From Candidatus Omnitrophota bacterium (GTDB taxonomy: Bacteria > Omnitrophota > Gorgyraeia > Tantalellales > Tantalellaceae), in assembly GCA_043822245.1 (NCBI GenBank), contig JBDRBY010000055.1, forward strand, positions 1-51,956: a stretch of 51,956 bases of DNA. Direction: 5' to 3'. A program made the translations under genes and the position numbers. A model generated the notes under the pieces. It saw nothing but the letters and a program-made list of their open reading frames with translations, searched no databases and was not told where the DNA came from. Shown here one piece after another: positions 5,246 through 51,955 of the stretch; the stretch's first letter is position 1; every line of letters starts with the position of its first letter.

Positions 5246-8200
5246 TTATACCGACACTGCCGTTTGGATTAACGAGGCAATTTCACGGCTTATCATTTCA
5301 GAAAGATTAAAGCGCGTAATTGGCATTAGGAGAATTTCGGCAAGCGCTCCTATTGTTCTTAAAATTTCATCAGAACATTCAACCGCTACCACATTTGCCT
5401 GTTCAGGGCCAGACTCGTAACGTTTGAGTATGCCCATAAGCGCGATTGCCGGAATCATATTTAAAAGTTCCTTTGATTCCTGTGACTTTTGCCCTACTAT
5501 TACAAAATTAGCGCGTTCTTTTCCGTCGGTCCGCAAATGCGGGATAAACTCTTCCGTCTTACTTTCAGCGGTGACAATCGATATAGCTGACAATGGGAAC
5601 TCATCGGAACGGAGCCTAGATTTCTCCAATAAAAGTTCTCTTGCTATGGCAATAACATCCACCTCCTGCCCTTCAGGGATCGAGACATTTAAGATATTGT
5701 CAGCATCCAAAGCTTCCTGTAAGCGGCCTTGTGGGTCAACCAGGCACATGTACAAATTGGGGTCCTTAGTCGCAAGCCGCTTAACAGCAGGAAGCATGGA
5801 TGAAAAAACACTTTCAGGCATATCACGCAAATCATATATAACCGCTTGGCGCGCGGGGATAAGGTTATTTGCCTGTAATTCGGTTATCTTTTCCACAGCC
5901 TCGTCTTCTACTTTTTGAGCCATGGCCATATTCTCAGCCTCACTCAGTAAATCAGAGGCATAATTACCGGCAAAGGCCGCTTCTATCCTCGCGTCTATCG
6001 TGTTATTTATAAAAGTCTCTTGCTCAAACTCTTTGGTTATCGTAATAATCGCGTTTTTAAGCCGTTCATCCCTCAATTTAGCCACCGAACCCGAGTCTAA
6101 CCCCGCGTAATACGGATATTTTTCAACAAACGCCGCTTTGCGCACGTATTTTACCATGCCATTGATATTGTCTCTCACGTCCTCAGGAGACATGTCGATT
6201 AGGAAGCGTTGGGGTAAGATTTCTCGACTCGGACCAAAGTCCTCGCTCGAAATGACAGAGGGAGCAAACCTTATATCTGGATATGCTTCAGATAGTTTCT
6301 GAAGCATAGTCTCATCAGCACCTTCAATTTGAACCACGGCAATCGGTTCGGCGGGTTTCGCGGGCACTTTTTCAATTGTACCGTAGGGCATGAATTTTTT
6401 CGTAACTTTTATGTTTCTCGTAAACGCGTATAAGTTAACAGCCATATGGATTATGACAGACATAACAAAAAGCCATTGCGGGCTTGTTTTCATTAGGAAA
6501 AGGGAATATGGCAGGAGCAGGTTAAGCCCGGTAATGATTGACGCGGTAAAACGGCTTCCATTATGGCGTTTTATAAAAATACTGCCGGATATAATTTGAC
6601 CAATGGTTATCGTGACTAAAAACGTAACAAGGGAAAGTTCACGGGGTACAAACACAATCATGCCAAGTGATAAAAAGAGCGGCAAGCCGAAATAAATTCC
6701 ACGTTCAACGAATGGAGCCCCCACTAAATGTTTTAAACCATACAATAGCTGTTTGTCTCTAATATCTTTATCGTATTTAATACCAGAAAATTCTTTTTCC
6801 GCGTCTTGGGTCAACTCGTCATAAGGCGCTTCGCGATGCATCGCGTAAAAAGTATGCCACGCGAAAACTTCTTCGTTTTCAGACTTATATAAATAAACTA
6901 GCAGCCTCTGCGCTTTGAGCCGGTAATCCCCTTCAAGACATTTGGTTGAGGATAAAATCGCGGTTTTAAAATCTTTTTTCATACAACCAAGCATGGCTTG
7001 GCAGAAATGTATCGCATCTCGATATCCTTTGTCTATAAAATCGAAATTCCTATTGCGCATCAAAATGATAGAATCTCGAATAGTTTTTAAAAGTTTGCTA
7101 TTTTTTGAGTTAAATTGTATGAAAAATTGTTGTGCGTGCGGCTCGCCATTAAGATATTGATCGAGTTTTTTAAAAAATTGTTCATTGAAAGAAGGAAGAA
7201 TACCGCGAATAAAAATAAGGTCTTTGCCATATTTCGTGCGCGACAGAAGCGCGGAAAGCATAGCGTGTAACGCCCCATCTGACAAAAAGAAAAGGTTTAT
7301 GAGCTCTTTCGCGAGCGCGGTGTCATACGTTTTTTTGGCTATGGGTTTCAGATTCTCTTTTATATTTAACGTTTTATCAAGTAGCTTTTCTTTAAATTTT
7401 TCCTTATTTCTCTGCCAATAGCCAAATAAATCCTTTAGTTCATCGGGGGTTGCTCCTGAGATATTGTTTTCTATTGCCTCGTATTTTTCTTTTTCTTTTG
7501 TCTCTCGAAAATCCTTAATACGTTTTTCTCGAGCTTCTTTCGTTTCTCCTTCCGTTTTCTTTTCTAATTCGGCGATTTCGTCTTTTTTCTCTTGAAGCGT
7601 TTTATTTAACTTTTGGGCTCTGGCGTTTTTATCGTCAAACTCTAAGGCTTTAGTTATCAAAATATCAGCTTTTAAAAATTCGCTTTTCTGCAAAGCATTT
7701 TCAGCTAAGTTTAGGATGAAATTTATTATAGGATTAGATTGTCCGGTCAAGCCGGACAATGACAGAAGTTTGTTTTTTTCTTTCGCACGAGTGACCGCAC
7801 TATTAAGATCATATTCTCGTGTTTTAAGTAATTCCTGTACTTGTTCATTTCTTTTATCGCGTTCTTTTTCTCTTTTTCGTACCGGATCTTTCTCCCACTT
7901 TGCGTGTTCTTCTCTTTCCTTTTGCATATATTCGCGCGCTAAAATATGTTTTTCTTTTGGGCCTAAGAGATTTTCAAAGCTGTCTTCTAAGTTTCTTATT
8001 CGCGCTTCGATCTGCCGCTTTTTACCTTCTCTTAATTCACCCGCATGATCGCTTTTGTAATTTCTCAAATCTTTTAATTGTTTGTCAATTACCGTTTTTT
8101 CTTCCTTAAACTGATCCTGTCTTTCCGTTGCATTAGCATATCGCAGAATCGTGTTATTTACCTTTTTTTCAATCTCGGTAATTTCGGACAGCAGGCGGTC

Positions 8201-11200: not shown

Positions 11201-14200
11201 GGCTGACAGAAAAATAAGCGCGCCTGATAGCGGCAATATCTTTAGAATAAACGCCTTTCGGCTTGATGCGATTTTATATTTGGCTCCATACCCCTGGGCC
11301 ATGCCCAAAAACGTCTCTTTCGAATTATCTTTCATCTTTTCAGCTTTTTTATAATCAGAGAACGCTTTTTTGACTTCTTGATTCTCGCTTCTAATCTTCG
11401 CGCGGATAAGGCGCGCGCGTAAAACCAAGCTGTCGGTTATTTCCATTGGGATTCTACGTTTTTTTCTAAATGACAGGAATTTTCGTACGCGGGAATAATC
11501 CTGCCAGGTTAGGATTTTGTTGATGTTGTGTAAGATTGCTTCGGGCGCTTCGCGCCCTCGCAATGACACGGCGGGGGCAACTCCTTGCAATGACACGGAG
11601 AGTTCGGCGCGTAACACGTAGGATTCGGCGCGGTGAGGGGCAATGTCTTCCGCGATTTCCAGTGTTTCAAGAGCTTTTTTGAAATTTTCCAAGGCCTTAT
11701 ATTCGTCACGGTTTTCGCGTTCTTTCTCTCCTTTTTTCTTGTATGCTTCTGTAAGCGAAATGTACGCTTTGTAGAGCTTTAATGGATCAGAAAGTATCCT
11801 GTGAATGTCTATAATAAGCCTGTGCGATTCAAAATTAAAGGGGTCTTTTTCAATAGCCGCCCGCGCTTCTTTAAGGGCTTCGTCAAAATGTTTAAGATAA
11901 TGATGCGCTTTAGCAAGCTTGTAATGCGCAGTGCTGTTTTCTGGCGCGATTTCAATAGCTTCTTTGTATTTTGCTATTGCTCTGTGGAATTCCTTGAAAT
12001 CTGTTGTCTTTCTCGCCTTTTGCCAAATGGCATCTGCCTCGTCCATTAGCTCTTGTTCAGGGTGCCGCTCTGGATCATAGGTCTCTATTTCCACTGTCAT
12101 TCCCGCACCACCTGTCATTCCCGCGAAAGCGGGAATCTGTGATACCAAAAATAAACGCTTTTTCTTACCATTCATCTTATGCCACGCGTCACAATTTGCT
12201 TCTTTCATTGCCGATAATAACTCTGAAATGAACTCAGCCTTTGTTTTATTTTCTGGGGCGATCTTAGCTATAACATCTTTCAACGCGGAATCAATTTTAA
12301 TGTTGCTCAGTAATTCGAACTTTACCGTTATGCCAGTTATGCCAGTATTTTTACCGGACAAATCCACCCTATCCAAATGCCTGGCTTTTAAAATTTCGTA
12401 AACTGATTCCAAAACACTCAGTGCGTTTGTTAATAGAACGTGCTTTTCATTTTTCCAGGCTTCTTTTCCCTCCTTTGGTAACTTTTTCCAATCGTAAAAT
12501 ATTGACAAAGCATTGACTGCTTTGCCGCGGAAAAGAGTTTCAGCGTCTTGCATTTCCGCGATTTTGGGGAGTTTAAACACTTTTTGTAAAACTTCACGAA
12601 AGAACTTATCAAAACTTGGTAATTCTTTGTCTTTGCGGGTTGACAGGTTTAGTTGTTCATAGATAAGGTCAATGAAATCGGAAAGGGCAATTACGCGTAA
12701 AAGACGCGGCGTGGCAGTATCCGCATAAATCGTCAGCAAAAACCATGCCAATTTGGATGTTTTATTACTCTGTTTGTATTGATCCTGAATATATTCAAAG
12801 ACTTCAATGGCGGTAAACGATACTCTGCCAATGGTAACATTTTCTTGGTTACTATTTTGGAGAAACGTCCTCGTTATTATCAAAAGGCCAAAAGCGCTTT
12901 CCGCGAGCTCTAAACGAAGTTTTCTAAGCCGCTTTTCAAGTTCGTAACGCTTTTTTCTATTTGGCTCGGTATATTTTATTCTATTGAGCCGTTCATTGAT
13001 TATTTTTATAAGTTCGGGAAATCTGTCTGGGTTATGATATACATACGCGATTAACTTTTCTTTTGTATCTTTCAGAGTTTTTTGGCCCTCTTTTTTTGAC
13101 TCATCAGGTAATTCGATTGCGTCAAGGTATTTGTTTAAGGCGTTGTTTATTATAGATCCCGGGTCTCGGGCTTCGCCCTCGCCCGGGATGACAATCGAAG
13201 CAGCTTCGGCTGTTTCCGGGATGACAATCGGAGCGGCTTCGGCTGTTCCCGGGATGACAGGAGGGGTGAGGCCTTTTTTTCGATCGTTTTTCTTTTTTTC
13301 TGCTTTTTTGGTGTCTTTCTCCTGGTTTTCTAAAGATTTTTTTATTGTTTTTAATCTTTCTTGCTGTGCTTTTAAATTTGCTTCGATTTTATTTAGAGAT
13401 TCCCCTTTTTCCGATATTTCGCTTTTAGTTTTTTTGCCTTTTCTTGCTAATTCATCCCATTCGGTATTATACTCACTTCCGGCTTTTCGCATTTCATCTA
13501 TTCGTATTTCAGATGTCCGAAGTTCAATGCGGAACTCTTTAATTTCTTCTTCTAAATCTGATTTTTGTTTGTTAAGTTTATCGATGCGGTTTTCTATTTG
13601 CTTTTTCTCTTTTTCTATTCTCTGTTTAAGTTCATATTGCTTGGTATAATCCTGTAACGCGTCGATATAGTCGCTGACTAAGGCGTCCGCGTATTGTTTC
13701 CTTACTTCAGGGTCGTCCGGTTTTGCTTTAATTGTGTTTTCCAGAGATTTGATATAGGCTTCCCATGCCTTACCATGTTCAGTCACAACTGTCTGCTGGG
13801 GATGTAAAGCGATCCATTTATTTGCTTTTCCTGTGAATAATTCAGACTGGGCTGTATTTCCTACATTGGCATAAATCCTTGCTATGGCCTTATACGCGGT
13901 AATTATCCTGTTATTTAACGAAATTAGTCGTTCCACTGTGACTTTCACTTCAGGGTCTTCTACTTCTTCTTTAAAAAGCTCGATAATTTTTTCATATTCT
14001 TTTATGGTATCCTCTCCCTTTTCTTCCGCTTCAAATATCGCGGCCTGCAGTAGATACTCTTTGTATTCCCATTCTTTCGCGTCCCAGAGTTTTTGCTGGG
14101 CTTCTTTTTTACGGTTTTGTTTTAGGGGTTTTAGATGATCTTTATACAGATTAAGTACTGACATAGGTAAAACGATGTCCTTATCTTCTGTATAGGCGAT

Positions 14201-27919: not shown

Positions 27920-28033
27920 TACTTTTGACCCCTACGTTGACCCCACATTACTATTAAAGTATACCCTATTTTTCATCCTCAAGAGCGAGAAAAATCTACC
28001 TTTTTCATTTTTAACGTAGCCGCTTTTGTCTCT

Positions 28034-28438
28034 TCACATTATGTTAATTCCTGCTTGTCTAAATCCCTTATCAAAGGAAAATGCCATATCTATCCCTATA
28101 TCTTCCATTATGCAAAAACATGAAACATCTGTAAAACTAAATTGTTTATCACGATACTTTTGATAACATTCCCATGCCCTTTGAAAATAATCCGGAAAGA
28201 CGTTTACAATTTTAACTATTTTGCTCTCTAATATCGCCGTCCCAGCTAAAACCGATTCTCGGTGACTTCCGCGCACCATTATGGTTGTTATGGTTTCATC
28301 TACAACATAATCCGATGTATAAATTTGAATCTTGCCTCTTTTAATCTCGTTGTATAGGCGTACCGACTTTTCATTATTGATATCATTCCGTACAAAAAGC
28401 GCTACCCATCCGCTTGTGTCAACAAAAACGTTTTCCAT
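28034..28438 (-). CDS. vapC: VapC-family PIN-domain ribonuclease toxin
   Basis: VFVDTS, DYVVDET, SFTD and FSFDKGF acidic PIN motifs; 134 aa; AGGAG SD; directly downstream of a small RHH gene. Confidence 0.9.
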   Translation of the reverse strand: MENVFVDTSGWVALFVRNDINNEKSVRLYNEIKRGKIQIYTSDYVVDETITTIMVRGSHRESVLAGTAILESKIVKIVNVFPDYFQRAWECYQKYRDKQFSFTDVSCFCIMEDIGIDMAFSFDKGFRQAGINIM

Positions 28439-28453
28439 ATTTTTTTCTCCTCT

Positions 28454-28696
28454 CTACTCGTATAAGTAGCGATCATGCTTAACTGACGCATCATCAACAT
28501 TAAGCTTTATCTTACCGATTGCCTTAGACAGGACATCATTGTCCCAATTGACTTTCTTCTCTTTCAATTTTAGAAAACGGTCAATGGCATTTCGTATTAG
28601 CTCTGATACTGCTAAATGTTCCCTTATCGCTTCAAGTTTAAGCCTCTTGAGCTGTGCTTCTTCAATATAAACCTGAGTTCTGTGCAAACTGCTCAT
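28454..28696 (-). CDS. Ribbon-helix-helix (CopG-like) antitoxin, VapB-type
   Basis: HRTQVYI beta strand, then helices with SELIRNAIDRFL; 80 aa; AGGAGG SD; 15 bp upstream of the PIN gene. Confidence 0.85.
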   Translation of the reverse strand: MSSLHRTQVYIEEAQLKRLKLEAIREHLAVSELIRNAIDRFLKLKEKKVNWDNDVLSKAIGKIKLNVDDASVKHDRYLYE

Positions 28697-28740: not shown

Positions 28741-28781
28741 TATACATTATACACTATACACCATAACCCTTGCGTTGTCAA
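28741..28781 (-). promoter_or_regulatory. Sigma70 promoter of the TA operon with an overlapping putative operator
   Basis: TTGACA (28776-28781), 17-bp spacer, TATAGT (28753-28758). TATACA is repeated at 28741, 28748 and 28755. Confidence 0.75.
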
Positions 28782-28786
28782 GACTT

Positions 28787-28880
28787 GAATAATAGGGACA
28801 GCGACCTATTTTTCTTCCCTTCCTTAAACGAAAAAAATAGGTCGCTGTCCCTATTATTCCCTATTATTCCCTATTATTCC
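28787..28880. repeat. Perfect 27-bp inverted repeat (MITE-like or terminator) followed by a 10-bp tandem repeat
   Basis: GAATAATAGGGACAGCGACCTATTTTT (28787-28813) and its exact reverse complement (28833-28859) with a 19-nt loop; CCTATTATTC x3 at 28850, 28860 and 28870, abutting the giant-gene stop codon. Confidence 0.9.
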
Positions 28881-43800: not shown

Positions 43801-46800
43801 TTTCACCAGGTAAGCGGACTATATTTAACGCGCCTGTTGCTACTATCCCTGTGTTACCGATTCTGACAGAAAATTGTTCTGTCGCGGAATTCGCGCTTAT
43901 GGCGCCGGAGAAAAGGTCATTGCCTTTGGCGTCGTATAGAGTTACCTGCAGGCTTACATTGTTGTCAAGGCGGCCTGGGGTATGGATTCCCGCTTGCGCG
44001 GGAAGGACGAAGAGCGCGGGAAGGACGAAGGGGCGGGCATCGTCTCCTATGTAATTTGCTAATAACGCGTGAATTTCAGTCTCATTTGACAGAGTTGTTG
44101 TTTTTTTTATGTCTTTTCCAAAACTTGATAACTGAGATGATGCCTCTTCCAGCATCGTTTTGAAGTCGAGCGCGGCTAAACCTTCGCCCCATTCCACACG
44201 CGCTTCTACCTGCGCGATGTCCCCATTCGTATTTCTAAACATGCTTGGCTCTGTCACTAAATTCGGCGAAATGCTTCCCGTATAAATGTGTTCACCCGAT
44301 AGCGTATAAACGTTTGTTCTAATTTCCGTCCCCTGTTCAAGATTTTTAGCATAGTCTGACAGAAAATCCATAAACTGTTCTTTATTCGCGAAAGAAGCTT
44401 TCGCTACAGCGGTTTTAAAACTCGCTACTTCATGAGACGCGGCGCTAATCATTTCTGAATCCATGGTTATCGTAAACGCTCCAAGATGTGTCTTAACAAC
44501 TTCGATATTTACAATACAGTTCTTATCAAGATTCATACTGCTATCTCTTTTGCTTACGGCTGTTCTCTGCGAAACTCCTCTATCTAAAACTTTGCCGGCT
44601 GCGTCATACACGCTGATATCAATGCTTTCGCCAAGTATAAGCCTTGCGTTCTGAGCGGTTAAGAAGTCCTCTATCGTTTGCGCGCTCGTTAACTTCGCTT
44701 TAGCCGCGCTTTCTTTAAACACATTAGTAACCCATTCCAAGCGTTTTGCCATATCACCGCCGGCTTCGTCAGCAAGACGATTTACTGTTATACTCGCCGC
44801 GATTAGCGAGTGAGTGTCATGTTCTCTTACCGCGACGTCTTCTGTCATAGTGTTAGAAGTCAAAGAACCTGACATGAGCGAATCGCCTTTCGCGCCATAC
44901 ACTTCTATTCGCATAAACGTGTTATAGCCCAAACAAGCGTCCGCCCAGGAACTTAAAAAGTCCTTTCTTTCAGTGTCATCCGCGAAATTGACGCGTTTGG
45001 CTTTTACATCGCGTTCGAATTTCGCCTGAATCGTGTCCAACGCGTCTAACATCATATATATACTCACCGCTGAGTTATCGCTTCCGCGCGGTATAGTTAC
45101 CGGTGTATTTATAACATTTCCAAACTCGTCTTTAAACATTCTTGTGCCTGTCACAAAACTCGGCGAGATACTGCCTGTCCATTTATGCTCGCCGGACACC
45201 GTATCCACACTGATTCCCAATTCCATGCCGAAATTCGCGTTCGCGGCCATCCAGTCCGCTAAGTGCCGGTTTCTATTGTCAGCGTTTTCAAAGTTTAAAA
45301 AATCAGCGACTTTTGTCTTTCCTTTCAAAGACGCTTCAAATTCCGCTGATTTCATAAATAGCATACTAATTACCTGCTCGTTAGTTAACGCGGCGCTGTC
45401 TTCCATATTTCTGATTATTATCTCGTAATTCACTCTGCATCTTCCGATTGAATCCATTACTGAATTATTGATAGTGGCGCTTGTTGCGGCCAAACCTATT
45501 GTCCATAAATTCCTGCCATAGGCGTCTTGCGCGTTTATACGAATACTGGTTTGCATATCAAGTGAAGACTTTACACTTGTCAAAAAGATATTCCTGTCAT
45601 TTTCATTAAGGAATTTCGCTCGTTTTGCCAATGTCTCGAAATTAGACGCTGATAAAGACACTCTTTCCGCCATTTCACAGCCGTTTTCGTCGGACGTACG
45701 GCGGGTTGATGTTATACTGCCTGTTAGTAACGCGCCGTTATTCTCATTTCGTACCGTGAAGTTTTGCGTTATAGCGTTGTGTGAAACGCTTCCTGACCAT
45801 ACATAATCCCCGTTCGCGCGGTTATACGCGCTTAGCTGTATCGTCGCGTTATACTCAAGTCCCGTGTCCGCCAAAGAGCCTAAGAGGTTTGTTCTATCCT
45901 GTTCGTTCGCGAAATTGATTATGCCTTTTTCAAAATTCGCCTGCAGTCTTCCCGCCGCTTCCAGCATAACGTAATAGCTTAATTTAGCTTCGTCTTTACC
46001 CCGTGGCACAGCTACCTGGCTCATTCTCTCATTCTCAAACTTATCGTTTACCGGCCTTGTGTCAAGTAAAGATGCCGTAGTAATAGTGTATGAACCCTTA
46101 TACTTGCCTTCCCGGCTATACACATTTAGTATCAATTCAATATGAGAATTATCGTTATCTTTCATCCATTCAGCCAGAATCAGGTTTTTGATCTCTTCCG
46201 GTTCAAGATCAGTGAACCCGGGAAGCGCGGTTTTGCTTCTTAAAAATCCTTCAAAATTATCCGCTTTGAGAGACAGCATATCTATCGCCTGTTTGGGAGT
46301 TAATTCAGCGCCTTCCGCCAGGTCATTGATACTAAGCCGGTAATTTAGGTTACAGGTTCCGACAGAAACCATGGCCGAAACATTAGTATTCGAATTATCC
46401 GATGTTAAACCTTTTGTCCATAAATAATTTCCCTGCTTGTCATACGCGCTTATGCTAAGAGCGGTGTTTATATCAAGATTTGTTTTTACATCAGCCAAAA
46501 AGCGGCCGCTTTCCGTTTTATCAAGCAGGTTAACTCCCGCGGCTTTTGCTTTTACATCAGTTGATAATTGATGTAGGCGTTCTACCATTGCCTTGCCGCC
46601 CGCGCCGGGCAAACGGCTTTCAGAGTATTGAGACATTAATGTCACACCGCCCTCTTGTATGACACAATTCTCCGTAATGTTGTTTGAAGAAATGTTTCCT
46701 TGCCATACGTAGCCGCCTTTTGTATCGAAAACTTCACTATGGATCAGGATATTACCTTTTATTTGTGACGCGTTCCAATCCGGCGACAGGAAAAGCTCTC

Positions 46801-49800
46801 GGTTCGCTCCAAAGAAAGGCAGAGCGCTCGCGGGATCCTCGCCGATCCAAGATGCTGAAATCTTGTCCCATGATTCGCGGCTCGTAGCGGTTTCTGTGGC
46901 GGGCTTAAAATTTTTAAAGTCTGTTTCACGCGATACCGCCTCGAGAAATGCCTTCTCCATCATTTGTTCAAAACTTTCGCCAGGTTCACGAGTTTTGCTC
47001 ACCGTGTCGTTAGATAGTAACCCTGCTTCAGCGTTCGTTGCCGAATACATTATGGTCACATTTCTCAAAGAAGCGGTTATCTCTTTTCCCTCTAAAAGCC
47101 CTCTTACAAAAACATTTCCGGCGTCGTAATTAGTCTCGCTTCTTAAACTTTCTAACATACTTTTCGCGTCAAGAGAGTCACTAAACAAATTTGTTGTACA
47201 CACACCTGTCTTTTTACCTTCAACGTTATAACCAAATACCGCGCCATAACCTTTAAATGAACCGTTTAGGGTTATATCTGCCGGTAATAGGCCTGTGTCT
47301 TTTTGAATATTTTCGCGTGCCTCGTCAACTTCATGCTCCTCGGTAACCGCGCCGATAAAAAACGTGCCATAAAATTTATTTGTCTCGGTATTTACACTGT
47401 AAGAAGCTTTATGGCCTCCTATGCTTGTCAAAACTGAAATATTCCCAACCATTTTTCCCGTACGATTGCTAAAGAAATTGATAAGGTTGTCAACGTCTTC
47501 TTTTGTTGCCCAATCATTTTTGTCTTCAATATTCAGCGTAAGCAGTTTGTTACTAAGCCCGAATTGGCCCTTTATGCCGTACAAAGTTGCTATAAGGTAC
47601 ACCTGACTCGGCGCGAGTCCAAATTTTGCTGAAATATCTGTTCTTTTCTGCTCCAACTCCTCTGTATTTTTAACATAACCGACATCAATATTCGAAATGC
47701 TGACAGGCTCGCTGAGAAGCTTTTCACCGTCAAACTTAAACGTAAAATTCCCTTTTTCTCCTTTAAACATTCCGGATACGCTCACATAACCTGACGCGGC
47801 CATTTGCATGGCTGTTGTCAAAATCGTCATTTCAGCTCCGGCAACTTTATCTTTTATAGTGTCCATTACACCTTGAACCTTATCTAATGATACGCCGGAT
47901 AATCTTTTCTGAAGACTATTTAACGCGGCTTTGTTAAGACTGCCATCTTCGTCAAACACGGCGTTCGTCGAAGCCGAAGAATTCGCGCGCGCCTGCATGC
48001 CGAGCGAAGCAAGCAGAACACCGATATCCAGGTTACCGCACTTAATGCCTAAGGTTTTATTAAAATACTTGGTAAAATTATTCAAACCTTCGCTTTCCTC
48101 GCCTATTGATTTGAACATATTATCGAGCACAGTTGTATCTTCTTTTTCTTTCGCGCTTTGAATAAGGCTCGCGAGCCCTGTCAGCGTGTCTATGCCGGTA
48201 GTGCCTCTCGATTTTATTATGTCCCCAATTGCTGATTTCATATCACCGCAGTTTGACTTTGTAATCAGATTCATGGCTATAAGCATACGGGAGGCGGTAT
48301 TTTCTTCGTCATTTGACATAAGGGCAGACACCAACGCGTCAAAACGCATAATCTTAGCGCAATATTCAAGCGCAGGTAATAGTTTTACCGGATCGGTTTC
48401 CGCTTTCAAAGTGTTTTCCGAAGCTAATACGGCAAAAATATCATTCCTATTTTCTTTTTCCGCGAATTTACGGACAACTTCCATAAACGTTGGGTTCGGG
48501 CCGAGAGAGCCGAATAAAGACGGGAGCATGCCGTTTTTTGATAGAATGTCAGTAAATTTGTCGCCCGCTTTTTCTCCTTTTGATAATTTTATAAACACAG
48601 GCGCGGCTCTTGCCCATATTTCGACCTCGCCGTCCTGGCCCATCCTTATAGCGTCTAATAACGCGTTATTTAGAACCTTGTCTTTTATAACAGTCATTTT
48701 GCCGTCCAAAATAATACCGGTTGAAGAATCGCCTAATGATTTTGCGTTTAGTTTGGTTCCGCCGATTTTTTGGGATTTACCGGAGGCTTTGAATTCGTCG
48801 GTGACTATAACAATTTGATTTTCGGCGTCAAATAGGCTGTTGTTTTGGATGGTGATGTCTCCGGTCATGAAATCTTCGTCAATTTTAAACACCATTGTTT
48901 TGCCGGCGCTGTCAGCTCCGGCTCCGGGAGACGCGGAACCGCCAACGTTGTTTATGATATAAGTGCCTGAGCTCAGGTGAACTTCAGCTTTGGCATTGGC
49001 AATGTTGAGAGCGCCTTTTTTGAATTCAATGATTCCGCCTTTTTGTATTTTTATCCATTCATCTGTTCCCCTACTTGTTAAGGATAGATCATCTTTGAGT
49101 TTTTCGCCGAAAAGGCCTAAAGAGAGCTCTACCGTGCCGGTTAATTCAAATTTCTGTTTACCTCCTTTTAAACGCACGGTTATCGCGTTATTGCTATCCG
49201 CTGTCAATAACGCGGTAACTTCGCCGGTATTATTATTCATGCTCACGTTTTCATACCCATTATCCCGCCAGTATTTTATTATTTCATTTGCGGGCCTGTA
49301 GCCGCTCTTTGCCGAGAACGGCCATATGAGCGCGCCGTTTTTATTAACTTCACATATCACATATGGACGCGTGCTATCTCTAAAAAACGCGAGTTTTCCC
49401 ACAAGGGTTTCTTCTGTGCCATCAATAAAGACATCGAACATGCGCTCTTCCGCGCCATATACAGGTTTTATATAGACAATATCTTGTGGATTAATCCCCA
49501 ATTGTTTTCGTACTGAGTCAGTGAACCAGGCCTCGAGTTTCGCGTTGCCTTGGACGGAGAAGCGGGAGATTGCTTCGGCCGCTTCGGGGCGGGTGGCGGG
49601 CGCCATTACCAGTGTTGGGGTTGTTAAGGGTTGGGGCGCAAGAGAGCTGTCAATCGATATTCCATAGTCCACAGTTTGTGGCGAATCTTGTTGGCCTACA
49701 TACTCAGCTCCTTGGAAATCGGTTACAATTACCGGGCTCCAATAAGGCATCGTAGGGCTCCAGAAAGATTGAGACGCGAGTGAAATGGGCGGCGCGTATA

Positions 49801-51955
49801 GTGAAAATGGGTTTTCACGCGAGAAGACCATTGAACCATCCGGCAGGATAGAAGCTACGCCTGGGCCGCCTTGTTCCCATAAAATGTTTTCAAGATAAAA
49901 TGACGTTTTGTTTTCGTAGTCGTGGGATAACATGTCCTGGCTTTTGTCCCAGCTAAGTTGGCCTATATAGTAGCAACCACACTTATTAGAGATGTATGTG
50001 GCAAAATCTTCTAATGAAACGGCTTCGCTATTTTCAAACACGGCATTGTCAAACCATGAATATTTTCCGTCTTTTTTAAACGCGCAAATCGCGTGGTCTT
50101 CCTGCGCGGTACGTACTACTAATATCACCGGTTCATATCCCAACTGCTGCAGGGTGATATAATTTCGAAACGCAAACCCTTCACAGTCGTCTTCGATTGG
50201 CCCTGTTGTCTTAAACATCCATCTGTCCCATCCCTCGGGATCTGGTACGTATTTACTATTTCCCAACACCCAGCCTATGTACTCTTCGAGAGAGTAGAAA
50301 CCGGCGCCGGTTATGCTATCGGCGCGGTTTTGGTATGGATCGAGAGAGGAGATTGCTTCGGCCGCTTCGTGGCCTCGCAATGACACAGGAGTGGGGCTTT
50401 GCAATGATGCGGGGGTAGTGGGGGCGGCGGAGTATTTATAGTTGATGCCGTCGGTGCTGGTGAAGGGGATTAGGTCTATGTCTATTATAGATTCCTGCTT
50501 TCGCAGGAATGACAAAGAAGGCAAGGATGCCATTAACGCGTCCCTATCGTCTTCGGTGATGTTCAAGAGTTCGCAGATGGCATTGAAATTTTTAACTAAC
50601 GCTTTCGCGTCGATTTTGAGTGTTATTGTTATGGTTACACTGAGCAGGTTTTCCTCATTTAGGTGATAATTCAGGGCAATTGTGTAATTATCTTTGCCTA
50701 TTAGTTTATTCAATTCGCCTGAAGTCTTTAAAAGCGGTTTTAATATTTCGTTAATCTTTGTGAGTTTTTCTTTAAGATTTTTGATGTCAGTCTCATCCCC
50801 TGCTGTTTTTTGGAACAGAGCGTCTATGACAGCCTGAGTCATCTCGGGGCATACCTCGACAGTGTATGACCTGAGAAGAGACTTATATTCGTTTATTACG
50901 GCAATTGTCTTCGCCTTATCCGCGGAAGAATCAACTAAAGCCTCCAGAATCACTGACGCCGAAGCGACAGCCATTGCTTTTTTCGTCTGGTCAAAATTCT
51001 GTGCCATTCGTATCATATTCAGGGCGGCATCAAGGCAGTTGGCGTTTTCCAGCATCTTGCCCGCGTCAATTGTATTGTCGTTTTCCATGGCTGTTACTAA
51101 ACTCGAAACCACTCTTGCCATGTTTACCATATTCGCCAAGATCACGTCCTGTCCGCCTTTTTTCGCGGTAATTTTCGCGATATTGTCAGCGCCGCCAAGC
51201 TCCGACATCGCGGAAAGAGAACACGTAATAAGCTTTAAAATCTCGTCTTTCTTGTCGCCGAACTTGTCAAGATTTTCCACGAGAGCTGTATTTACGTCAC
51301 CTCGTTCCTGAAGCGCGGCTAAAATAATTTCCGCTGGTTTACCGGTTTCAGACACGTTCAATATATTCGCCACGTTATCCGCGGTTAAAAAGTCATTCTG
51401 GGATAGGACAACACTCTCTAGCATATCCATCGCGCGTTTTGTGAATGAATCCACGCCGAATTTCGCGTCAGCGGCGGTTATTTTGTCAAATCCTTCAATT
51501 AACGAGCGGACAGCATCACTGCGGCCCGAAAAAACCGTTTTAATAAAATCAACTATCGCGCTTTCATCTATACCTTCTGAAAACAGCAAACTCACATTAT
51601 CCACGGTTAGGACGGCATTCATAGTCGTAAAAGAATTCTCAAGCATCTTCATCGCGCGATCCGCGAACTGGTATCCTGCCTCTACAAAGTTGCTAAAATT
51701 TACCATTATTGATTTTGCCATTACACACAAACTGTTGAACGCGGCTTGTATAACCTCGAGGCCACCTTCGGCCCCAAGCAGATCTTTTATGCTCTCAATC
51801 GTCAAAAGACGGCTAACCGTGTCAAACGAATTCTCTATCAGTTTCATCGCCCTATCCGCGAACTTTCCGAAATTCTTGAAGTTTACCGCGAGTGAATCCA
51901 CCATTTTGCATAAACTGTTGAACGCGGCTTGTATAACCTCGAGGCCGCCTTCGGT
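28880..51955 (-). CDS. Giant membrane protein of more than 7,690 aa (5'-truncated by the window): helical repeats, transglutaminase-like domain, ~310-aa super-repeats, glycine-zipper/TM block, degenerate SecA-like ATPase, JAB-like domain
   Basis: The frame stays open from 51904 to the window edge (TEGGLEVIQAAFNSLCK-M), so ATG 51904 is internal. Motifs: DDCEGFA..HA..FDN (about 50020-50300), ECSEGKT and GFDEIEQTL (about 33500-35370), EVGG..YHTHP (about 30680-30920). Confidence 0.9.
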   Translation of the reverse strand, partial: TEGGLEVIQAAFNSLCKMVDSLAVNFKNFGKFADRAMKLIENSFDTVSRLLTIESIKDLLGAEGGLEVIQAAFNSLCVMAKSIMVNFSNFVEAGYQFADRAMKMLENSFTTMNAVLTVDNVSLLFSEGIDESAIVDFIKTVFSGRSDAVRSLIEGFDKITAADAKFGVDSFTKRAMDMLESVVLSQNDFLTADNVANILNVSETGKPAEIILAALQERGDVNTALVENLDKFGDKKDEILKLITCSLSAMSELGGADNIAKITAKKGGQDVILANMVNMARVVSSLVTAMENDNTIDAGKMLENANCLDAALNMIRMAQNFDQTKKAMAVASASVILEALVDSSADKAKTIAVINEYKSLLRSYTVEVCPEMTQAVIDALFQKTAGDETDIKNLKEKLTKINEILKPLLKTSGELNKLIGKDNYTIALNYHLNEENLLSVTITITLKIDAKALVKNFNAICELLNITEDDRDALMASLPSLSFLRKQESIIDIDLIPFTSTDGINYKYSAAPTTPASLQSPTPVSLRGHEAAEAISSLDPYQNRADSITGAGFYSLEEYIGWVLGNSKYVPDPEGWDRWMFKTTGPIEDDCEGFAFRNYITLQQLGYEPVILVVRTAQEDHAICAFKKDGKYSWFDNAVFENSEAVSLEDFATYISNKCGCYYIGQLSWDKSQDMLSHDYENKTSFYLENILWEQGGPGVASILPDGSMVFSRENPFSLYAPPISLASQSFWSPTMPYWSPVIVTDFQGAEYVGQQDSPQTVDYGISIDSSLAPQPLTTPTLVMAPATRPEAAEAISRFSVQGNAKLEAWFTDSVRKQLGINPQDIVYIKPVYGAEERMFDVFIDGTEETLVGKLAFFRDSTRPYVICEVNKNGALIWPFSAKSGYRPANEIIKYWRDNGYENVSMNNNTGEVTALLTADSNNAITVRLKGGKQKFELTGTVELSLGLFGEKLKDDLSLTSRGTDEWIKIQKGGIIEFKKGALNIANAKAEVHLSSGTYIINNVGGSASPGAGADSAGKTMVFKIDEDFMTGDITIQNNSLFDAENQIVIVTDEFKASGKSQKIGGTKLNAKSLGDSSTGIILDGKMTVIKDKVLNNALLDAIRMGQDGEVEIWARAAPVFIKLSKGEKAGDKFTDILSKNGMLPSLFGSLGPNPTFMEVVRKFAEKENRNDIFAVLASENTLKAETDPVKLLPALEYCAKIMRFDALVSALMSNDEENTASRMLIAMNLITKSNCGDMKSAIGDIIKSRGTTGIDTLTGLASLIQSAKEKEDTTVLDNMFKSIGEESEGLNNFTKYFNKTLGIKCGNLDIGVLLASLGMQARANSSASTNAVFDEDGSLNKAALNSLQKRLSGVSLDKVQGVMDTIKDKVAGAEMTILTTAMQMAASGYVSVSGMFKGEKGNFTFKFDGEKLLSEPVSISNIDVGYVKNTEELEQKRTDISAKFGLAPSQVYLIATLYGIKGQFGLSNKLLTLNIEDKNDWATKEDVDNLINFFSNRTGKMVGNISVLTSIGGHKASYSVNTETNKFYGTFFIGAVTEEHEVDEARENIQKDTGLLPADITLNGSFKGYGAVFGYNVEGKKTGVCTTNLFSDSLDAKSMLESLRSETNYDAGNVFVRGLLEGKEITASLRNVTIMYSATNAEAGLLSNDTVSKTREPGESFEQMMEKAFLEAVSRETDFKNFKPATETATSRESWDKISASWIGEDPASALPFFGANRELFLSPDWNASQIKGNILIHSEVFDTKGGYVWQGNISSNNITENCVIQEGGVTLMSQYSESRLPGAGGKAMVERLHQLSTDVKAKAAGVNLLDKTESGRFLADVKTNLDINTALSISAYDKQGNYLWTKGLTSDNSNTNVSAMVSVGTCNLNYRLSINDLAEGAELTPKQAIDMLSLKADNFEGFLRSKTALPGFTDLEPEEIKNLILAEWMKDNDNSHIELILNVYSREGKYKGSYTITTASLLDTRPVNDKFENERMSQVAVPRGKDEAKLSYYVMLEAAGRLQANFEKGIINFANEQDRTNLLGSLADTGLEYNATIQLSAYNRANGDYVWSGSVSHNAITQNFTVRNENNGALLTGSITSTRRTSDENGCEMAERVSLSASNFETLAKRAKFLNENDRNIFLTSVKSSLDMQTSIRINAQDAYGRNLWTIGLAATSATINNSVMDSIGRCRVNYEIIIRNMEDSAALTNEQVISMLFMKSAEFEASLKGKTKVADFLNFENADNRNRHLADWMAANANFGMELGISVDTVSGEHKWTGSISPSFVTGTRMFKDEFGNVINTPVTIPRGSDNSAVSIYMMLDALDTIQAKFERDVKAKRVNFADDTERKDFLSSWADACLGYNTFMRIEVYGAKGDSLMSGSLTSNTMTEDVAVREHDTHSLIAASITVNRLADEAGGDMAKRLEWVTNVFKESAAKAKLTSAQTIEDFLTAQNARLILGESIDISVYDAAGKVLDRGVSQRTAVSKRDSSMNLDKNCIVNIEVVKTHLGAFTITMDSEMISAASHEVASFKTAVAKASFANKEQFMDFLSDYAKNLEQGTEIRTNVYTLSGEHIYTGSISPNLVTEPSMFRNTNGDIAQVEARVEWGEGLAALDFKTMLEEASSQLSSFGKDIKKTTTLSNETEIHALLANYIGDDARPFVLPALFVLPAQAGIHTPGRLDNNVSLQVTLYDAKGNDLFSGAISANSATEQFSVRIGNTGIVATGALNIVRLPGETGLQMIERMSLKAEGFRQRVENVNLLDENARNIFLAKEYSLLGANAELDINAYGAKGNHLWTVSLAGKTVSKNTKVMDSLKFCEVNYQIVVRKGEDGAALSDLKMIEKVFLNSASFESAVKKTADFSTIITRNYFLADWAKQNLDAYTELRGSAFMLSGEHRWTGSISTSRVTEIATIKDASANVMRVNASVQRGVGSVQLGYLKMLVSAAFNLEEFRKDVNIGKDFSNKQEWHNLLADWVGDDIFSASLSQYGWLGPSFSTSRLSSNITLEVNMRDCNGNDLWQGTIASHGLSQNFSLRDKKTGFTLTGQINVSRLPGETGDLLVSRLSSLESVIPATSSVIPASSSVIPAEAGIHALAACITNLGPNASIDISAYNDKGKHLWDVSLSKENISLVKSVMDKQKQTITTYEITVPSGHGDAILTPIQMVNEVFTKSTAFGREISAVSNFGTRKESDDILADWMNTRLAFGTEIDISVSGIDNSFKWNRRVSANAVTERRTTVNLNNGNIVRFQTTAVRDTDGLTSKEMLEQTFRQAQQFMAVISSVLSANAEDYNKNLYTLLASLIGDDSFVTDGIKPKIASNVTIQANIETKTGGYVWSGSMSAGHLTENYFVRDQGTGITAQGYIAVSRMQGETGINLADRLAKTTDKLTNEINPQKLSVTHNLITFMNEKSSAFGKYTDFAIVLTDFTGRTIEDVTINSQFMTLKIIAQDMNGNFAFSTARVDLKSGYRRTIDMNGMAGALFDMSEVFKNIAKLSDLSTIGNCADFMSQFESLFDYSDNVFSVQTEFNLANGDKGLFRVGTNTRLTRFVAQISKDGTLVQGWISCNMDGQMSVMPNSELFKSMVQEAEFSNPEEWMNFMKQFEYNEYNPEAFFTIQASFNKGPVTEHFSVNRPGEVETRVSWENEKGIRASGWVSVTDAASLRASLEIFKATFMESEINDAAFLEGFLFTEGGYLTGGKLNFMFEDYGGSFLMNAHIDGKKIGNTSNVTTIAAYDKYNELIGREVTISRLHNGDFPLLSSVIPAKAGIQPQPDTDGYYHGTTKHDRNGKLTHMQGVIACPAENGTFMGALVVTQWTEADKKGTFIRSDGFELDKKFIQRLDVHERQIDFTLIEDKDKTNAGFTTFKLELDKEAGGFIGLNGAIVTSQYEPRNISLLAMVKDAGAVANSGLYALENGTMVFSGRVEGSLRQDKRPDILTEGVSGSGSGGMPLITKERDFAIKAQTGDVYLIDGHIEYKNSQSLAFAPGDDSGANVIRCECDAEINGLLFKKGAKVGIDKDGALRASNVEAETAYLLRKGSSLRRFGDLQFAFGQGEDRIKFKYMPSMKSEGHKEFRAVDGTEARYLFTTTTNEGMTVVASSNWTKMKNGQLKNTTLNYVWLERDMDDITIGEGRNYANRLKLSYDKGKYVINGVIQAADIAVREPATIKHDPKAAAMAGASGEKPKEAKTNLNITGISENGKVFRLQGTWEIIDSDFRVCRPGAQLNNLTDTVITFYRTPVAADFSLRFNENGEPYPWNPKQKAKVTAGSLMYEDIKTEKGTIAKVVSGAALGGVAGSMFVPFYGTILGMIIGACTVGLDLWFNTEAKMPQWLATPGQKFRSVILSEAKNLSSSSKESVPTVSLRGGAEVADEAIPATSKHTSTVENLIQGIGNWYSTISGRLYGNTAIGATSGAVLGSIFIPLPGVGTAIGALAGGIIGLTVGILDVSGIGGFALRGIGKGLSAVWNKAEVWKWAKYYFGESAIGRLQFAVEALSVSEIVRNWDTIKSRASKMFTKFTQSSAGIFFSDMAEDVGVFAGKTWNGFKGFIKNSWIGDFAADVSNKISTLHEATRLYPGIEVPVYGNYTDKDGNQVWQIVETIRIDPATGRETGAAQEAKYWAESRSQGVGISGVKMPVYFAANFAESIMDMASTGRNEKFFANVKKAFVDDLIGHGIVGSFAGTGRVMINNDTGDWIKGKLYAKGITDQGALATIGTWTSMGTTAGTLIGLPCGGFPGLVIGGLAGFGTGLIIAAETLLFYNRQNKNLEYYIYEFSSTHKLQDAMAKGDDKFLFELSNVAAVVISVTSFGLSNLGGAFRVHGSSVLKTRLGSDGFLYKYTYEDVIGLATALTYAGFAGFSSSSSFSQAAVKKGLALGIGIYTTGAISQTIFTNKRFEETFTTSEAMLWGLRGAAVGMVMGGIIPGGLAQLKTSAGLARFMGTGAIWASANAGVYAAQAAFTGAKFDDKAFAAKIILGFGEGLAFHAIFSTMFHAVGSPFGNLIKSAIGKGIGWTSRIVIVAASTATFYTVGYIKANGKMTTRETINSLARGAIWGVAIAYALSPTGIEHLTGSAYNAAAKEKASLLLVEKYNVTNMLDVMFKYNAVAQASIVGAKRWVFISPMFTVFGALLDGTISAVMGQGFHFQLKQRGADGNVNLKQPINWTTGWGIIATSALSGVTKGLWMGPLVSIFAHPAKDASGNLLTLDAVSERVAAQVLVPNAASTAGLSVIQEKFFQIVHGAAFIWQEMEMVITVTGINRTLEAFAKHENIAKTGFSRWEVGLLSWVFLFIKPASWSISYHINNSLQNWAKDNVIENTINKLVSVTETKFVKNEIDKIQNNDTIAEVVKTEKIGLVKALAIRTLAQALKIDNKIVDMALDRAGISAYGKTFSMMFADSSGPTAEFKDPVIVMAEKQRTPFNNVLDVESKQIHDIAQAVFKEFLAKIGNQPEGFLQDMKNVAEKALNKLILEFNEDSSIGNRINDLKTVIVALNQGISGHGEPLAQQAETARTIANNGRDDITITHNNRLIEICVEVMLQINNDHHKSTGTEYFYPSKLQTEALVSAVHQQLINIGSAKGDAGNAAILLECSEGKTWVDITQFEVLDKYLIEAGKIDSKTTNTIKYLLLLPGPELVTQFVDPKDNQAYNTVENYFKGRGLDIFSTLLEQNLTANKSGLYVMETSEALKLFHKNPALFNKFIYVGFDEIEQTLQMPALVIANHEDIQALYNSADKAMMSYVNAIYNLFRTFVESQKDLKQDGSTIDRDLPSLRLQYFKGPLENLISEFLTKNENESFMKILGNSAAQELLYAFAGPRGIGVYLGQFDGASGNPEIKFETDKNSAKIFKNYGLSDTAGHNLESMKFKDPISAMAVLLHAAIIDGAKVTESDIYGNFSVSSQKGVSISDVLTYLNTHNYWHSFGVTNIITGLGATAEGCREMLKQLNFRVYDLGASDKIKMQDIVLVQGEGAVKKVVENAKDSFMTDKINGSAFNDAHKGNIHIFPTSAESYAHEVGNWLNEMCHDQKGEPNTGYKGLHTYSDIEGFKSFLKSVANEVQSYGILVFTNPNDLSDALNIAIKENMLNAWGRIMHVVGPLVTGSNIAKCVDDLVNPAFVKDTEFTRFQVTAVGNLTSSGAIQQACRWSTSVEHPSQTGLMVTRRLPAKITTVCDTEKLLCTFDERGELHSKMNGKKVVSGKLGDGDVIDKAWEYMERHNDMIDRQRSQETVRIVWESASDFNFGMTPDNVFMADPSLNFVKSSESKNEEMIYSNEHLNYKERRIFLAAFDMDETMQSFAEVSNNKLLTGGELHKAREIIQNLTNKKSEDGYKWNTSVIGDLMALSNAIQGQSLMVQNMVLSLFNDTISLVDFNMLSGVCNIFGEEKILYLMRKAGVEKTMSPIAFIRQNYARDGAMNVIMESAPKDVRETFIKTVSKITPTKTKMSNMSETLFGSTETDTKVVELFAACMRGEKYKVAEKTKFEEADIPMFEASARLVGLRGMETARLIFNSGEIGKTYVERKYDKKVVDYFDLLSSAESIRKTGEVKKKDKDHALDVSEVKAIRTAAKITAITAGIAGIGITAFAVITGAVLSAFGIGAVCAAVAGVAYKAGKRFGETIIGFKSGEEVAYSTGWTHEKFSELDADAKVRVIVHESLPKWLAHGIANIGLLTLASNTITRFVGKMILGEEMFNALCIVCDRGDAINRVSTIAQKTESGLFLAEKKRAFNFIVTNYIDVLVSSIDQKEFDAANTNEVFEKINTLSALVDKSAIQGKTLHITVKHEAKDHKIDWNLTDNVITIDNGLVAASFSAPSVIARSLSEAKGTKRSLMSDIMQKMANVNVSSDVSYDAFNAALMKHAFENGYTLHSTRIVAGSENVRVELRTDIRENTLKITNLDSGFSEIVTKADTSLVKAYDLQGVITAVARVKKVGAKSYDNRDPEILKIIEQNVREDLWSQSKELAEKVPDNMVREIVEARFDGSKGIIRDNMDFVVNNERGEQIGVIHGNEYSGDQLIAVMVEKFGISNNMVSEMTKDFKGILPYEVGGTILRQEDGTFEYRQSIRAVLKISDTGEILSMGETDIVKRSDKVVFQYHTHPHITTDVREYLADILAFVEKAEFVGSELDVMAPMRIYERGEKEQTVGETKLLFARKSADGTIAPVLLRLNPESGKFENVAEFDAMFGNVDLGSMIRRAQTAVVPSVMPGVVSDGQLITLSLGGKEATVSLIPFGNNTAELTVNHILYEKKKAAALVPEQAVVRGDEIRTRVPAEKILIGDTLLLRQITVFYEQILGFISSFINELQTEKDGKALIISLEDKDVPETLKKLLSEITDVEIQLPVVDRAIWQILNRSEVPADYYGTSEEFFTIDKVVLVRTEAGKFEIRVPALAKQDFNTKILTLSDKFDIMDADIDTLIKVVVKAVMYEKQGFMLSPETKKIIAQAIDRVGQVHVIAGMDNAMLFLEPQRALVVVQDIMDAKRLLETGFQQIDKVTNLLERAAQAGGTVLRLLKDGNLLLAGSDIRVLPASFINKDTQGYKTFVKQMHMINNGAVRRREKARIKILVAGSKRDIRSIKVLLPVEYQKTVEFTSFGKVTEKINGMYSAMSRTTGEVRITGIVQNENSLLAKLLINSNMRVRIIVARTFNEAMLMTVSSIAIEKRGWFTPLAVERLRNAMEKVQKSSVNGNTTVTSIPGAASEEANSRIDEYLFGDLEAETAF
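31547..31592 (-). repeat. In-frame nested element (family C core inside a family B stem)
   Basis: AGATCGCTTCGTCC-CCTTCGCTTCGCTCAGG-CTCCTCGCAATGACA; translated VIARSLSEAKGTKRS. Confidence 0.8.
38887..38986 (-). repeat. Pair of in-frame elements (family B 38887-38928; family C 38961-38986)
   Basis: GGATTGCTTCGTCGG..CTCCTCGCAATGACA and AGATTCTTCGCTTCGCTCAGAATGAC; translated VILSEAKNL..VSLRGGAEVADEAI. Confidence 0.85.
40704..40730 (-). repeat. In-frame family A element
   Basis: TGGATTCCCGCTTTCGCGGGAATGACA; translated VIPAKAGIQ. Confidence 0.9.
42732..42802 (-). repeat. In-frame family A element plus two 21-bp arm duplications
   Basis: CGCGGGAATGACAGA at 42746, 42767 and 42788; translated SVIPATSSVIPASSSVIPAEAGIH. 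Confidence 0.9.
43983..44030 (-). repeat. In-frame family A element plus 18-bp arm duplication
   Basis: GCGCGGGAAGGACGAAG at 43996 and 44014; translated FVLPALFVLPAQAGIH. Confidence 0.85.
49565..49586 (-). repeat. Half family B element, identical to 50348-50369
   Basis: GGAGATTGCTTCGGCCGCTTCG; translated EAAEAIS. Confidence 0.8.
50348..50532 (-). repeat. Cluster: family B element (50350-50385) and family A element (50489-50514), each with a degenerate arm duplication
   Basis: GCAATGA at 50377 and 50401 (24 bp). AGATTCCTGCTTTCGCAGGAATGACA with GCAGGAATGACA at 50503 and GCAAGGATGCCA at 50521 (18 bp). Confidence 0.8.

Follow-up and report, generated by a model that had tools for sequence, protein, structure and literature searches.

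How short, hairpin-forming repeats come to lie in frame inside giant bacterial genes, and whether they serve any purpose there, is the question raised by contig JBDRBY010000055.1 of Candidatus Omnitrophota bacterium (GenBank assembly GCA_043822245.1). The window analyzed here is that entire contig (C55, 51,956 bp), from a genome of 1.64 Mb in 82 contigs with 41% G+C. Most of it is filled by two minus-strand open reading frames (ORFs), giant genes 1 and 2, along which a first-pass annotation, made from the letters alone, had noted about 20 hairpins carrying a GTCAT tag. Judged by their sequence, these hairpins are NTS/SRM repeats, elements of the type known as the single-stranded-DNA target of Ssn, a GIY-YIG nuclease whose first description came from Neisseria (Chenal et al. 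2025, Nat Commun, PMC11893778).

Inspection of the 20 sites confirmed the GTCAT-hairpin-ATC layout that had been described at every one of them, with GTCAT or a one-base variant, an AT...AT palindrome and then C (20/20). The count of nine elements in giant gene 2 held, while giant gene 1 carries 12 loci rather than 11 because an overlooked copy at 24831–24864 was added, and the element near 49565 is indeed a half, of which only the 3′ arm and ATC remain. As had also been noted, both giant ORFs stay open across every copy and the smaller genes of the window contain zero copies. The window contains the GTCAT pentamer 112 times, whereas 100 shuffled versions averaged 73.6 and never exceeded 95. 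Strict elements, defined by GTCAT, at least 5 perfect outer base pairs, a folding energy ≤ −8 (RNA parameters, as for all scan energies) and a following C, occur 15 times; 100 dinucleotide shuffles yielded 0.07 on average and never more than 1. Refolding with DNA parameters put 12 of the 20 sites clearly ahead of their shuffles (z ≤ −2.9), those at 19019 and 50351 being intermediate (Table 1). Several window elements are preceded by tandem partial units that repeat every 18, 21, 33 or 36 nt and consist of the tag, the 5′ arm and a spacer.

Chenal et al. give the Neisseria NTS as CGTCATTCCCGCGMAVGCGGGAATCYRG and generalize it to Ssn-related motifs (SRMs). The short family in this genome, TGTCATTCCCGCGAAAGCGGGAATCYR, equals the published NTS consensus bar the first base, and the published degenerate pattern (HGTCWYN(0-2)YYVSBRHN(0-5)WNVSBRGN(0-2)RNCYNB) has 2 matches in the window and 40 in the genome, compared to 0–1 in shuffles, all of them from the short family. 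Long-stem families (34–47 nt) fail this pattern, yet they flank ssn genes. A genome-wide hairpin scan returned 292 candidates, of which 140 had an energy ≤ −8, 119 of those with C after, and 107 were left once nested calls had been removed. The flank profile of these 107 copies shows the oriented 5′ tag (H)GTC(W)(Y), hairpin of 20–50 nt and subsequent R-N-C-Y that characterize SRMs, within flanks that are themselves conserved and oriented (a pyrimidine-rich run before the tag, a T immediately upstream of it in 85%, and T-R-T-A-A following ATC). On the tagged strand only, the apical loops are of GNRA type (GAAA, GCAA, GGAA, GTAA) or CGAAG. Genome-wide there are 239 tagged arms in 175 loci, with at least nine different stem families for one ssn gene. 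Six copies of a variant with the loop GCAAAC (on C40, C66, C76, C27 and others) have identical 14-nt flanks on both sides and are probably part of a longer repeat unit.

The ssn gene lies on contig C82, where a 96-aa reading frame (33229–33516) sits between a plus-strand hairpin (33181–33218), which ends 10 nt before the ATG, and an inverted one on the minus strand (33588–33611), 70 nt after the stop, with both GTCAT tags facing outward. It is the hairpin-flanked one among four GIY-YIG matches in the genome and the sole ssn. Its product matches PF01541 at 55 bits with no other domain, in keeping with SsnA, a 94-aa single-domain GIY-YIG protein of the Ssn nuclease family (cd10448) which, according to PMC11893778, recognizes its motif in single-stranded DNA, on one of the two strands only, and cleaves upstream of it; biochemistry is known there only for the Neisseria and Wolbachia enzymes. 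The C82 protein is 52–54% identical over 93–98% of its length (tblastn, E = 3e-29) to a locus of N. gonorrhoeae that is unannotated and surrounded by 7 NTS copies in a span of 1.1 kb, a context from which we infer that the locus is ssnA. Weak matches were also found to a group I intron endonuclease (NCBIfam) and, in a PDB search, to UPF0213. In five Omnitrophota genomes rich in SRMs, inverted hairpins bracket 8 of 21 small GIY-YIG genes, at near-constant distances and with a separate stem family for each, compared to none of the 7 larger ones. Of 23 tandem arrays, 20 have their sole complete hairpin as the 3′-most unit; partial units thus build up 5′ of it, on the side of the cut made by the published enzyme.

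The first-pass annotation had regarded the hairpins as akin to repetitive extragenic palindromes (REPs) and had named RAYT/Y1 as well as GIY-YIG genes as enzymes that they might flank. The GIY-YIG part of that expectation stood with the C82 gene; the RAYT/Y1 part did not, and the REP/RAYT-type identity fell with it. Mobilization of the hairpins as REPs by a Y1 HUH transposase could draw on the seven Y1_Tnp matches above the Pfam cut-off in this genome and on the tendency of the tagged strand to be the locally G-rich one, as expected for single-stranded DNA biology (117 of 175 loci, 58 opposite, a ratio confounded with gene orientation). However, no GTCAT hairpin lies within 1 kb of any of 16 Y1 loci (7 from this genome and 9 from SRM-rich relatives), no Y1_Tnp was found in G104, a genome that carries 91 copies and is 87% complete, and the only repeat-embedded Y1 gene sits among palindromes of another family, the GTAG type. 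We regard this explanation as largely refuted and very improbable. SRMs do resemble the REP/REPIN and RAYT systems in being short, oriented, high-copy hairpins, in flanking the enzyme gene with inverted copies and in strand-specific recognition on single-stranded DNA, but here the enzyme is GIY-YIG rather than HUH and the Y1 genes are not SRM-flanked. REPs, moreover, are extragenic.

The GTAG family (GTAGAGACGCGAT(T/A)(T/A)ATCGCGTCTCTAC) makes up the most repeated 12-mer set in the genome, with up to 270 copies. It occurs in the window at 4328 (intergenic) and at 31898–31939 (giant gene 2). Elsewhere it is found in frame in two further genes: MetH, with three copies between its domains, and a Y1 transposase-like gene on C20, also with three.

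IS110 and TnpB were likewise considered as mobilizers and rejected. The genome has one IS110-family transposase gene (C51:21371–22522), about 1 kb from an SRM inside an SPL-like gene. A TnpB zinc-ribbon search of the genome gave no match. The dRS3 sites of Neisseria are targets of IS110-type integrases. The ATTCCC-N8-GGGAAT core of Neisseria dRS3/NIME arrays is identical to that of the short family, but dRS3 is defined without an oriented GTCAT tag and is intergenic according to PMC11893778. With the Neisseria NTS/SRM and Ssn system, the repeats share the tag and core (short family), the oriented hairpin, the hairpin-ssn-hairpin gene architecture, a nuclease 52–54% identical to the Neisseria locus and a patchy, high-copy distribution. 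Unlike the published system, this genome combines at least nine stem families with a single ssn, long stems outside the published pattern and 5′ tandem partial units.

That the hairpins are a dispersed repeat is borne out by the 175 loci, and their absence from the orthologues of two genes identifies the copies in coding DNA as true insertions. In CTP synthase, whose closest counterparts come from Candidatus Omnitrophota MAGs, four units add 24 residues to the interdomain linker. All 33 aligned orthologues lack them, a set that includes same-family genomes at 76–81% identity (2 of 35 extracted ORFs were other genes and were dropped), and all 29 orthologues of alanyl-tRNA synthetase (AlaRS) lack the 13-residue insert seen here. 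SRMs were found in at least 10 housekeeping enzymes. Copies lie deep inside CTP synthase, AlaRS, DinB, a Memo-AMMECR1 fusion, MiaB/RimO, PabB, GcvT and LpxB, as well as a GltD-like protein and an SPL-like radical SAM protein, and in ordinary enzymes Pfam domains are found on both sides of, or around, the SRMs. In the Memo-AMMECR1 case (C53:2713–4302, L014), Memo-like and AMMECR1 domains share one ORF whose linker is an SRM array only (DSRFRGND and four RDMGND units), an array that may have fused the two genes.

Module comparisons within giant gene 2, which contains internal paralogous modules of ~320 aa each, are weaker evidence of insertion than the housekeeping orthologues. Two modules are without the loop that contains the copy at 43985, and the array at 42734 replaces a segment conserved in other modules. 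The sole homologue of a 1,667-aa piece of this gene among 40 relatives, in G007 (31% identity), shows no SRM where giant gene 2 has the one at 40706; a decayed SRM at that site was considered and rejected, the palindrome there being small and unrelated. If no insertion had occurred and the peptides were ancestral coding sequence that is palindromic by chance, a reading which can still be held copy by copy in the giant genes, for which no close orthologue was found, the same DNA would hardly be expected in intergenic regions and in five reading frames, nor would inserts be missing from orthologues of two housekeeping genes, or the copies at 43985 and 40706 from paralogous modules and the G007 homologue. 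For the family as a whole this reading is refuted, and we attach next to no probability to it.

Both orientations and several frames are used, as had been claimed, with antisense copies at 12096, 19019 and 19832 in the window and five frames genome-wide. The 125 arms inside coding sequences (CDSs) are distributed over the five stop-free frames as 29, 29, 16, 15 and 36, while the frame in which ATGAC is read as TGA holds 0 of 125. This agrees with the earlier proposal that selection is for an open frame and not for a specific peptide. The accompanying idea, that new linker peptide derives from the hairpins, is an interpretation rather than a demonstrated function. Rickettsia palindromic elements (RPEs), reportedly described by Ogata et al. 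in 2000, measure ~100–150 bp. The SRMs here behave like RPEs in that they are palindromic, lie in frame in coding DNA, including conserved genes, and are translated as extra loops, but this is a likeness of behavior only, and the units here are shorter, at 24–47 bp. A literature search found no published link of RPEs to GIY-YIG; Rickettsia is among the SRM-rich taxa listed in PMC11893778.

SRM density differed strongly between sequence classes, using a split into CDS and intergenic DNA that rests on our own codon-usage heuristic (1,510 genes, 90% coding) and not on a standard gene finder. Intergenic DNA holds 76 loci (4.66 per 10 kb), CDSs under 300 aa 25 (0.59), CDSs of 300–1,499 aa 42 (0.45) and CDSs of at least 1,500 aa 32 (2.37). 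The last class is 4.8 times denser than other CDSs (binomial p = 1e-10), or 3.8 times without the two window genes, and the prediction that giant genes exceed other CDSs in element density is thus upheld. The picture of hairpins colonizing giant genes holds to the extent of this excess, but the phenomenon is not special to them: intergenic DNA is about twice as dense, at least 10 housekeeping enzymes are affected and some giant ORFs are empty. Altogether 99 of 175 loci (57%) lie within called CDSs, all in frame, unlike in N. meningitidis, where only 2% of NTS are inside genes according to PMC11893778.

Orientation within genes bears on a possible role at the RNA level, in which GNRA-capped stem-loops in giant mRNAs would be processing sites, stabilizers or ribosome pause sites between domains. 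The loops on the tagged strand are of GNRA type, and the tagged strand is the mRNA-like strand in 18 of 21 window loci, as such a role would predict. Yet orientation relative to the host gene is unbiased in ordinary CDSs (30 same, 37 opposite), the three antisense window copies are equally retained and intergenic copies lie in both orientations around the ssn gene. The published Ssn enzyme does not bind RNA, according to PMC11893778. We consider an RNA-level role improbable.

Across 201 Omnitrophota genomes, the short hairpin is present in 64, patchily and with 0–103 copies each, compared to 0 for a reversed-pattern control. The co-occurrence of Ssn orthologues (E ≤ 1e-20) and hairpins over these genomes (two-by-two counts 36/21/28/116) gives an odds ratio of 7.1, in a test that overstates the link since related genomes do not count as independent. 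An Ssn orthologue is present in 13 of the 18 genomes with at least 10 copies. A sample of 30 distinct short-family copies, drawn from five further Omnitrophota genomes, included 5 with an open frame of 60 or more codons to either side. Other Omnitrophota thus have intragenic copies as well, and this genome seems to lie toward the upper end. Tagged hairpin arrays of the GTCATTTCGAGTGGAAGGAGAAATC type, with ~180-nt spacing, also occur downstream of pyrG in a Nitrospirales record (L059). Contigs from four public runs aligned to 36500–51900 gave a depth of only ~2–4 for the organism itself, too thin to show alleles, and at this depth no empty-site allele was found. Over the hairpins, pile-ups reached a summed depth of up to ~1,700, compared to 1–4 over the rest of the gene (40612–41125, 38556–39069 and 42668–43181; runs X1, X2 and X5, biofilm and groundwater metagenomes); these stem from other organisms' copies, and joints ran only between repeat copies. 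The same hairpins are abundant in many other organisms of these biofilm and groundwater samples.

We favor, at a probability of roughly 60%, the reading that Ssn-linked SRMs multiplied through the genome, that their excess in giant genes reflects tolerance and that the encoded peptides (VIPAKAGIQ, SFPRKRES, CHSRESGN, DSRFRGND, IPAFAGMT and others) are by-products of a DNA element. The oriented hairpins would be bound by the small GIY-YIG Ssn on one strand of single-stranded DNA, which would be cut just upstream, and copying might proceed through a putative Ssn-dependent event on single-stranded DNA, similar to that of REP/RAYT or IS200-type elements. Genic copies would survive only if the insert length is a multiple of three bases, if they are read in one of the five stop-free frames, and if they fall in a loop or linker that tolerates 8–70 extra residues. 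Giant proteins, which are long, fast-evolving and almost devoid of recognizable domains, would therefore retain ~5 times as many copies per kb as ordinary genes, at half the intergenic density. The G-richness of the tagged strand and the 5′ build-up of partial units fit single-stranded DNA biology.

Several observations weigh against this reading. Five of the 18 genomes with at least 10 copies showed no Ssn orthologue, the density ranking depends on the heuristic gene calls described above, and in 40 relatives and two metagenome scans the giant genes had no orthologue close enough to score empty sites. Six of the 20 window sites (6218, 19832, 25912, 31548, 38888 and 38962) fold no better than shuffles; they belong to G·A-rich stem families or are decayed copies, and are recognized by sequence family and not by energy. 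Four of 12 giant ORFs carry zero copies. Of the 32 loci in giant genes, 22 have the tag on the coding strand, a bias without parallel in ordinary CDSs. The N-terminal ~560 residues of giant gene 1 (25820–27919) have a free-standing 648-aa paralogue (C34:16751–18694, 25% identity, no Pfam family match), and both carry SRMs at the same aligned loop; these are independent events because the frames differ, and the shared loop could reflect site preference rather than passive filtering. Finally, tolerance alone does not account for the near absence from giant genes of two other palindrome families that are abundant in this genome. Of these, the GTAG type numbers 124 loci (84% intergenic) and the C-rich type 87 (82% intergenic), with only 0.15 and 0 loci per 10 kb in giant genes, and one of these control families is, by reading its sequence, also stop-free in five frames. 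The C-rich type, the third palindrome family of this genome (CCCCCCTTTGAAAAAGGGGG-like, ~87 loci), has no copies in the window.

The absence of other palindromes, the coding-strand bias and the parallel hits in paralogues leave a modest amount of room for site preference or a selected role. Ssn cutting at intragenic SRMs could control recombination or uptake of giant-gene segments, or promote module rearrangement and diversification in giant surface or predation proteins. Such a function would account for the SRM-specific enrichment, for the 22 versus 10 strand preference, for independent copies at one loop of two paralogues, and for one array replacing a conserved segment of a paralogous module while another lies in a hypervariable loop. 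It would also recall the NTS-gene-NTS configuration around Neisseria host-interaction genes, since NTS clusters there surround membrane and host-interaction genes and lower transformation according to PMC11893778. Yet many copies are decayed, six of 20 folding poorly and two having mutated tags (GTTAT at 25832, GTCCT at 43985), the giant ORFs without a copy and the seemingly arbitrary choice of frames fit it poorly, and such a function is implausible in the housekeeping enzymes that carry the same elements. We therefore regard a selected function as possible but unlikely. More doubtful again is the proposal that in Omnitrophota Ssn/SRM goes beyond a tolerated parasite and is a proteome-wide generator of in-frame loops and linkers, with giant-gene copies maintained as Ssn cutting sites that divide the 23-kb genes for recombination, module replacement and growth; if true, a mobile hairpin and a 96-aa nuclease would help build and diversify the largest bacterial proteins.

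Table 1 Giant genes, SRM loci and the in-frame GTAG-type palindrome of the window. z, DNA-parameter folding relative to shuffles.
Feature	Coordinates	Strand	Remarks
Giant gene 1	5246..27919	−	7,557 aa; 12 SRM loci
SRM, ATTTCGAGCGAGG... family, peptide VISSEDFGPSREI	6218..6256	−	weak DNA fold, z −0.65
SRM, 9-bp stem, peptide LSLSGLTGQS	7737..7763	−	z −5.1
SRM, hairpin 11534–11567 and one 5′ partial unit, peptide VSLQGVAPAVSLRGREAPEAI	11534..11594	−	
SRM antisense to gene, partial unit and hairpin 12114–12137, peptide QIPAFAGMTGGAGMT	12096..12137	+	matches published NTS/SRM consensus
SRM, hairpin 13155–13192 and two 33-nt partial units, VIPG/VIPE repeats	13155..13258	−	
SRM, hairpin 16401–16438 and five 36-nt partial units, VIPSESTEVTTT x5	16401..16618	−	
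SRM antisense to gene, peptide KIASATSRPRND	19019..19052	+	z −2.25
Short antisense SRM, GCGAAGC-type core, peptide EILRFAQDD	19832..19856	+	weak nearest-neighbor energy
SRM, perfect 13-bp stem, G not C after, peptide RHSEAPKGPQNE	24831..24864	−	z −8.7; overlooked in first pass
SRM, tag GTTAT, and partial unit, peptide VSSRGAEDTTVLLRGHEVPEAI	25832..25895	−	
Decayed SRM, outer arms unpaired, peptide VIPGEAQMAESKDL	25912..25951	−	
SRM, enlarged loop and partial unit, peptide LSFPDSLSFPRKYPDGHRRES	26622..26681	−	aligned loop shared with independent SRM in C34 paralogue
Giant gene 2	28880..51955	−	at least 7,691 aa, 5′-open at contig end; 9 SRM loci and 1 GTAG palindrome
Decayed SRM, no stable fold, peptide VIARSLSEAKGTKRS	31548..31591	−	
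Other-family (GTAG-type) palindrome GTAGAGACGCGAT..., in frame, peptide CDRGDAINRVSTIA	31898..31939	.	
SRM, ATTGCGAGGAGG... family, peptide VSLRGGAEVADEAI, weak fold	38888..38927	−	
Short SRM, peptide VILSEAKNL	38962..38986	−	
SRM, canonical NTS-like sequence, peptide VIPAKAGI	40706..40729	−	no SRM here in sole homologue, G007 (31%)
SRM, hairpin and two 21-nt partial units, peptide VIPATSSVIPASSSVIPAEAGI	42734..42799	−	replaces segment conserved in paralogous modules
SRM, tag GTCCT and partial units, peptide ...FVLPALFVLPAQAGI	43985..44040	−	loop absent from two paralogous modules
Half element, 3′ arm and ATC only, peptide PATRPEAAEAIS	49566..49600	−	
SRM and decayed partial unit, peptide QSPTPVSLRGHEAAEAI	50351..50400	−	z −1.5
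SRM, peptide LSFLRKQES	50490..50513	−	z −6.0

Pfam recognizes almost nothing in giant proteins 1 and 2, with weak SecA_DEAD, TPR and DUF4873 matches, of which the weak SecA_DEAD match and TPR fall in giant protein 1. Pieces of both genes found no relative in two metagenome scans. The gap of 1 kb between the giant genes contains a perfect 27-nt inverted repeat with a 19-nt spacer (28787–28859), which adjoins small ORFs at 28034–28438 and 28454–28696.

The repeat family and its nuclease were already known, the Ssn nucleases and their hairpins having been described only in 2025 (PMC11893778). In-frame palindromes as such have a precedent in Rickettsia. In the literature we found no report of SRM hairpins in Omnitrophota, although the supplementary tables of PMC11893778 may list Omnitrophota or within-CDS shares, nor any report of SRMs in frame in giant genes or housekeeping enzymes or of a contrast with other palindromes. 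The two preprints on Omnitrophota giant genes make no mention of palindromes, hairpins, inverted repeats or MITEs. In the published literature, SRM peptide and DNA motifs matched only a Neisseria paper, SsnA together with GIY-YIG returned only PMC11893778, and GIY-YIG together with repetitive extragenic palindromic elements was not found.

These results place an Ssn/SRM system in a distant, host-dependent phylum, and the role of Ssn outside Neisseria and the way in which its hairpins multiply are questions on which this genome bears. SRMs are written here into proteins such as CTP synthase, AlaRS, DinB and two of ~7,600 aa, and their entry into genes far exceeds that of the other palindromic repeats in this genome. 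With exact insert boundaries, polar partial-unit arrays on the enzyme-cut side and a strand bias, the genome is a natural data set for the insertion mechanism, and, in metagenomic proteins, VIPAKAGIQ, SFPRKRES, DSRFRGND and similar peptides can be interpreted as SRM footprints. The finding extends the observation from Rickettsia that mobile palindromes can create new protein segments.

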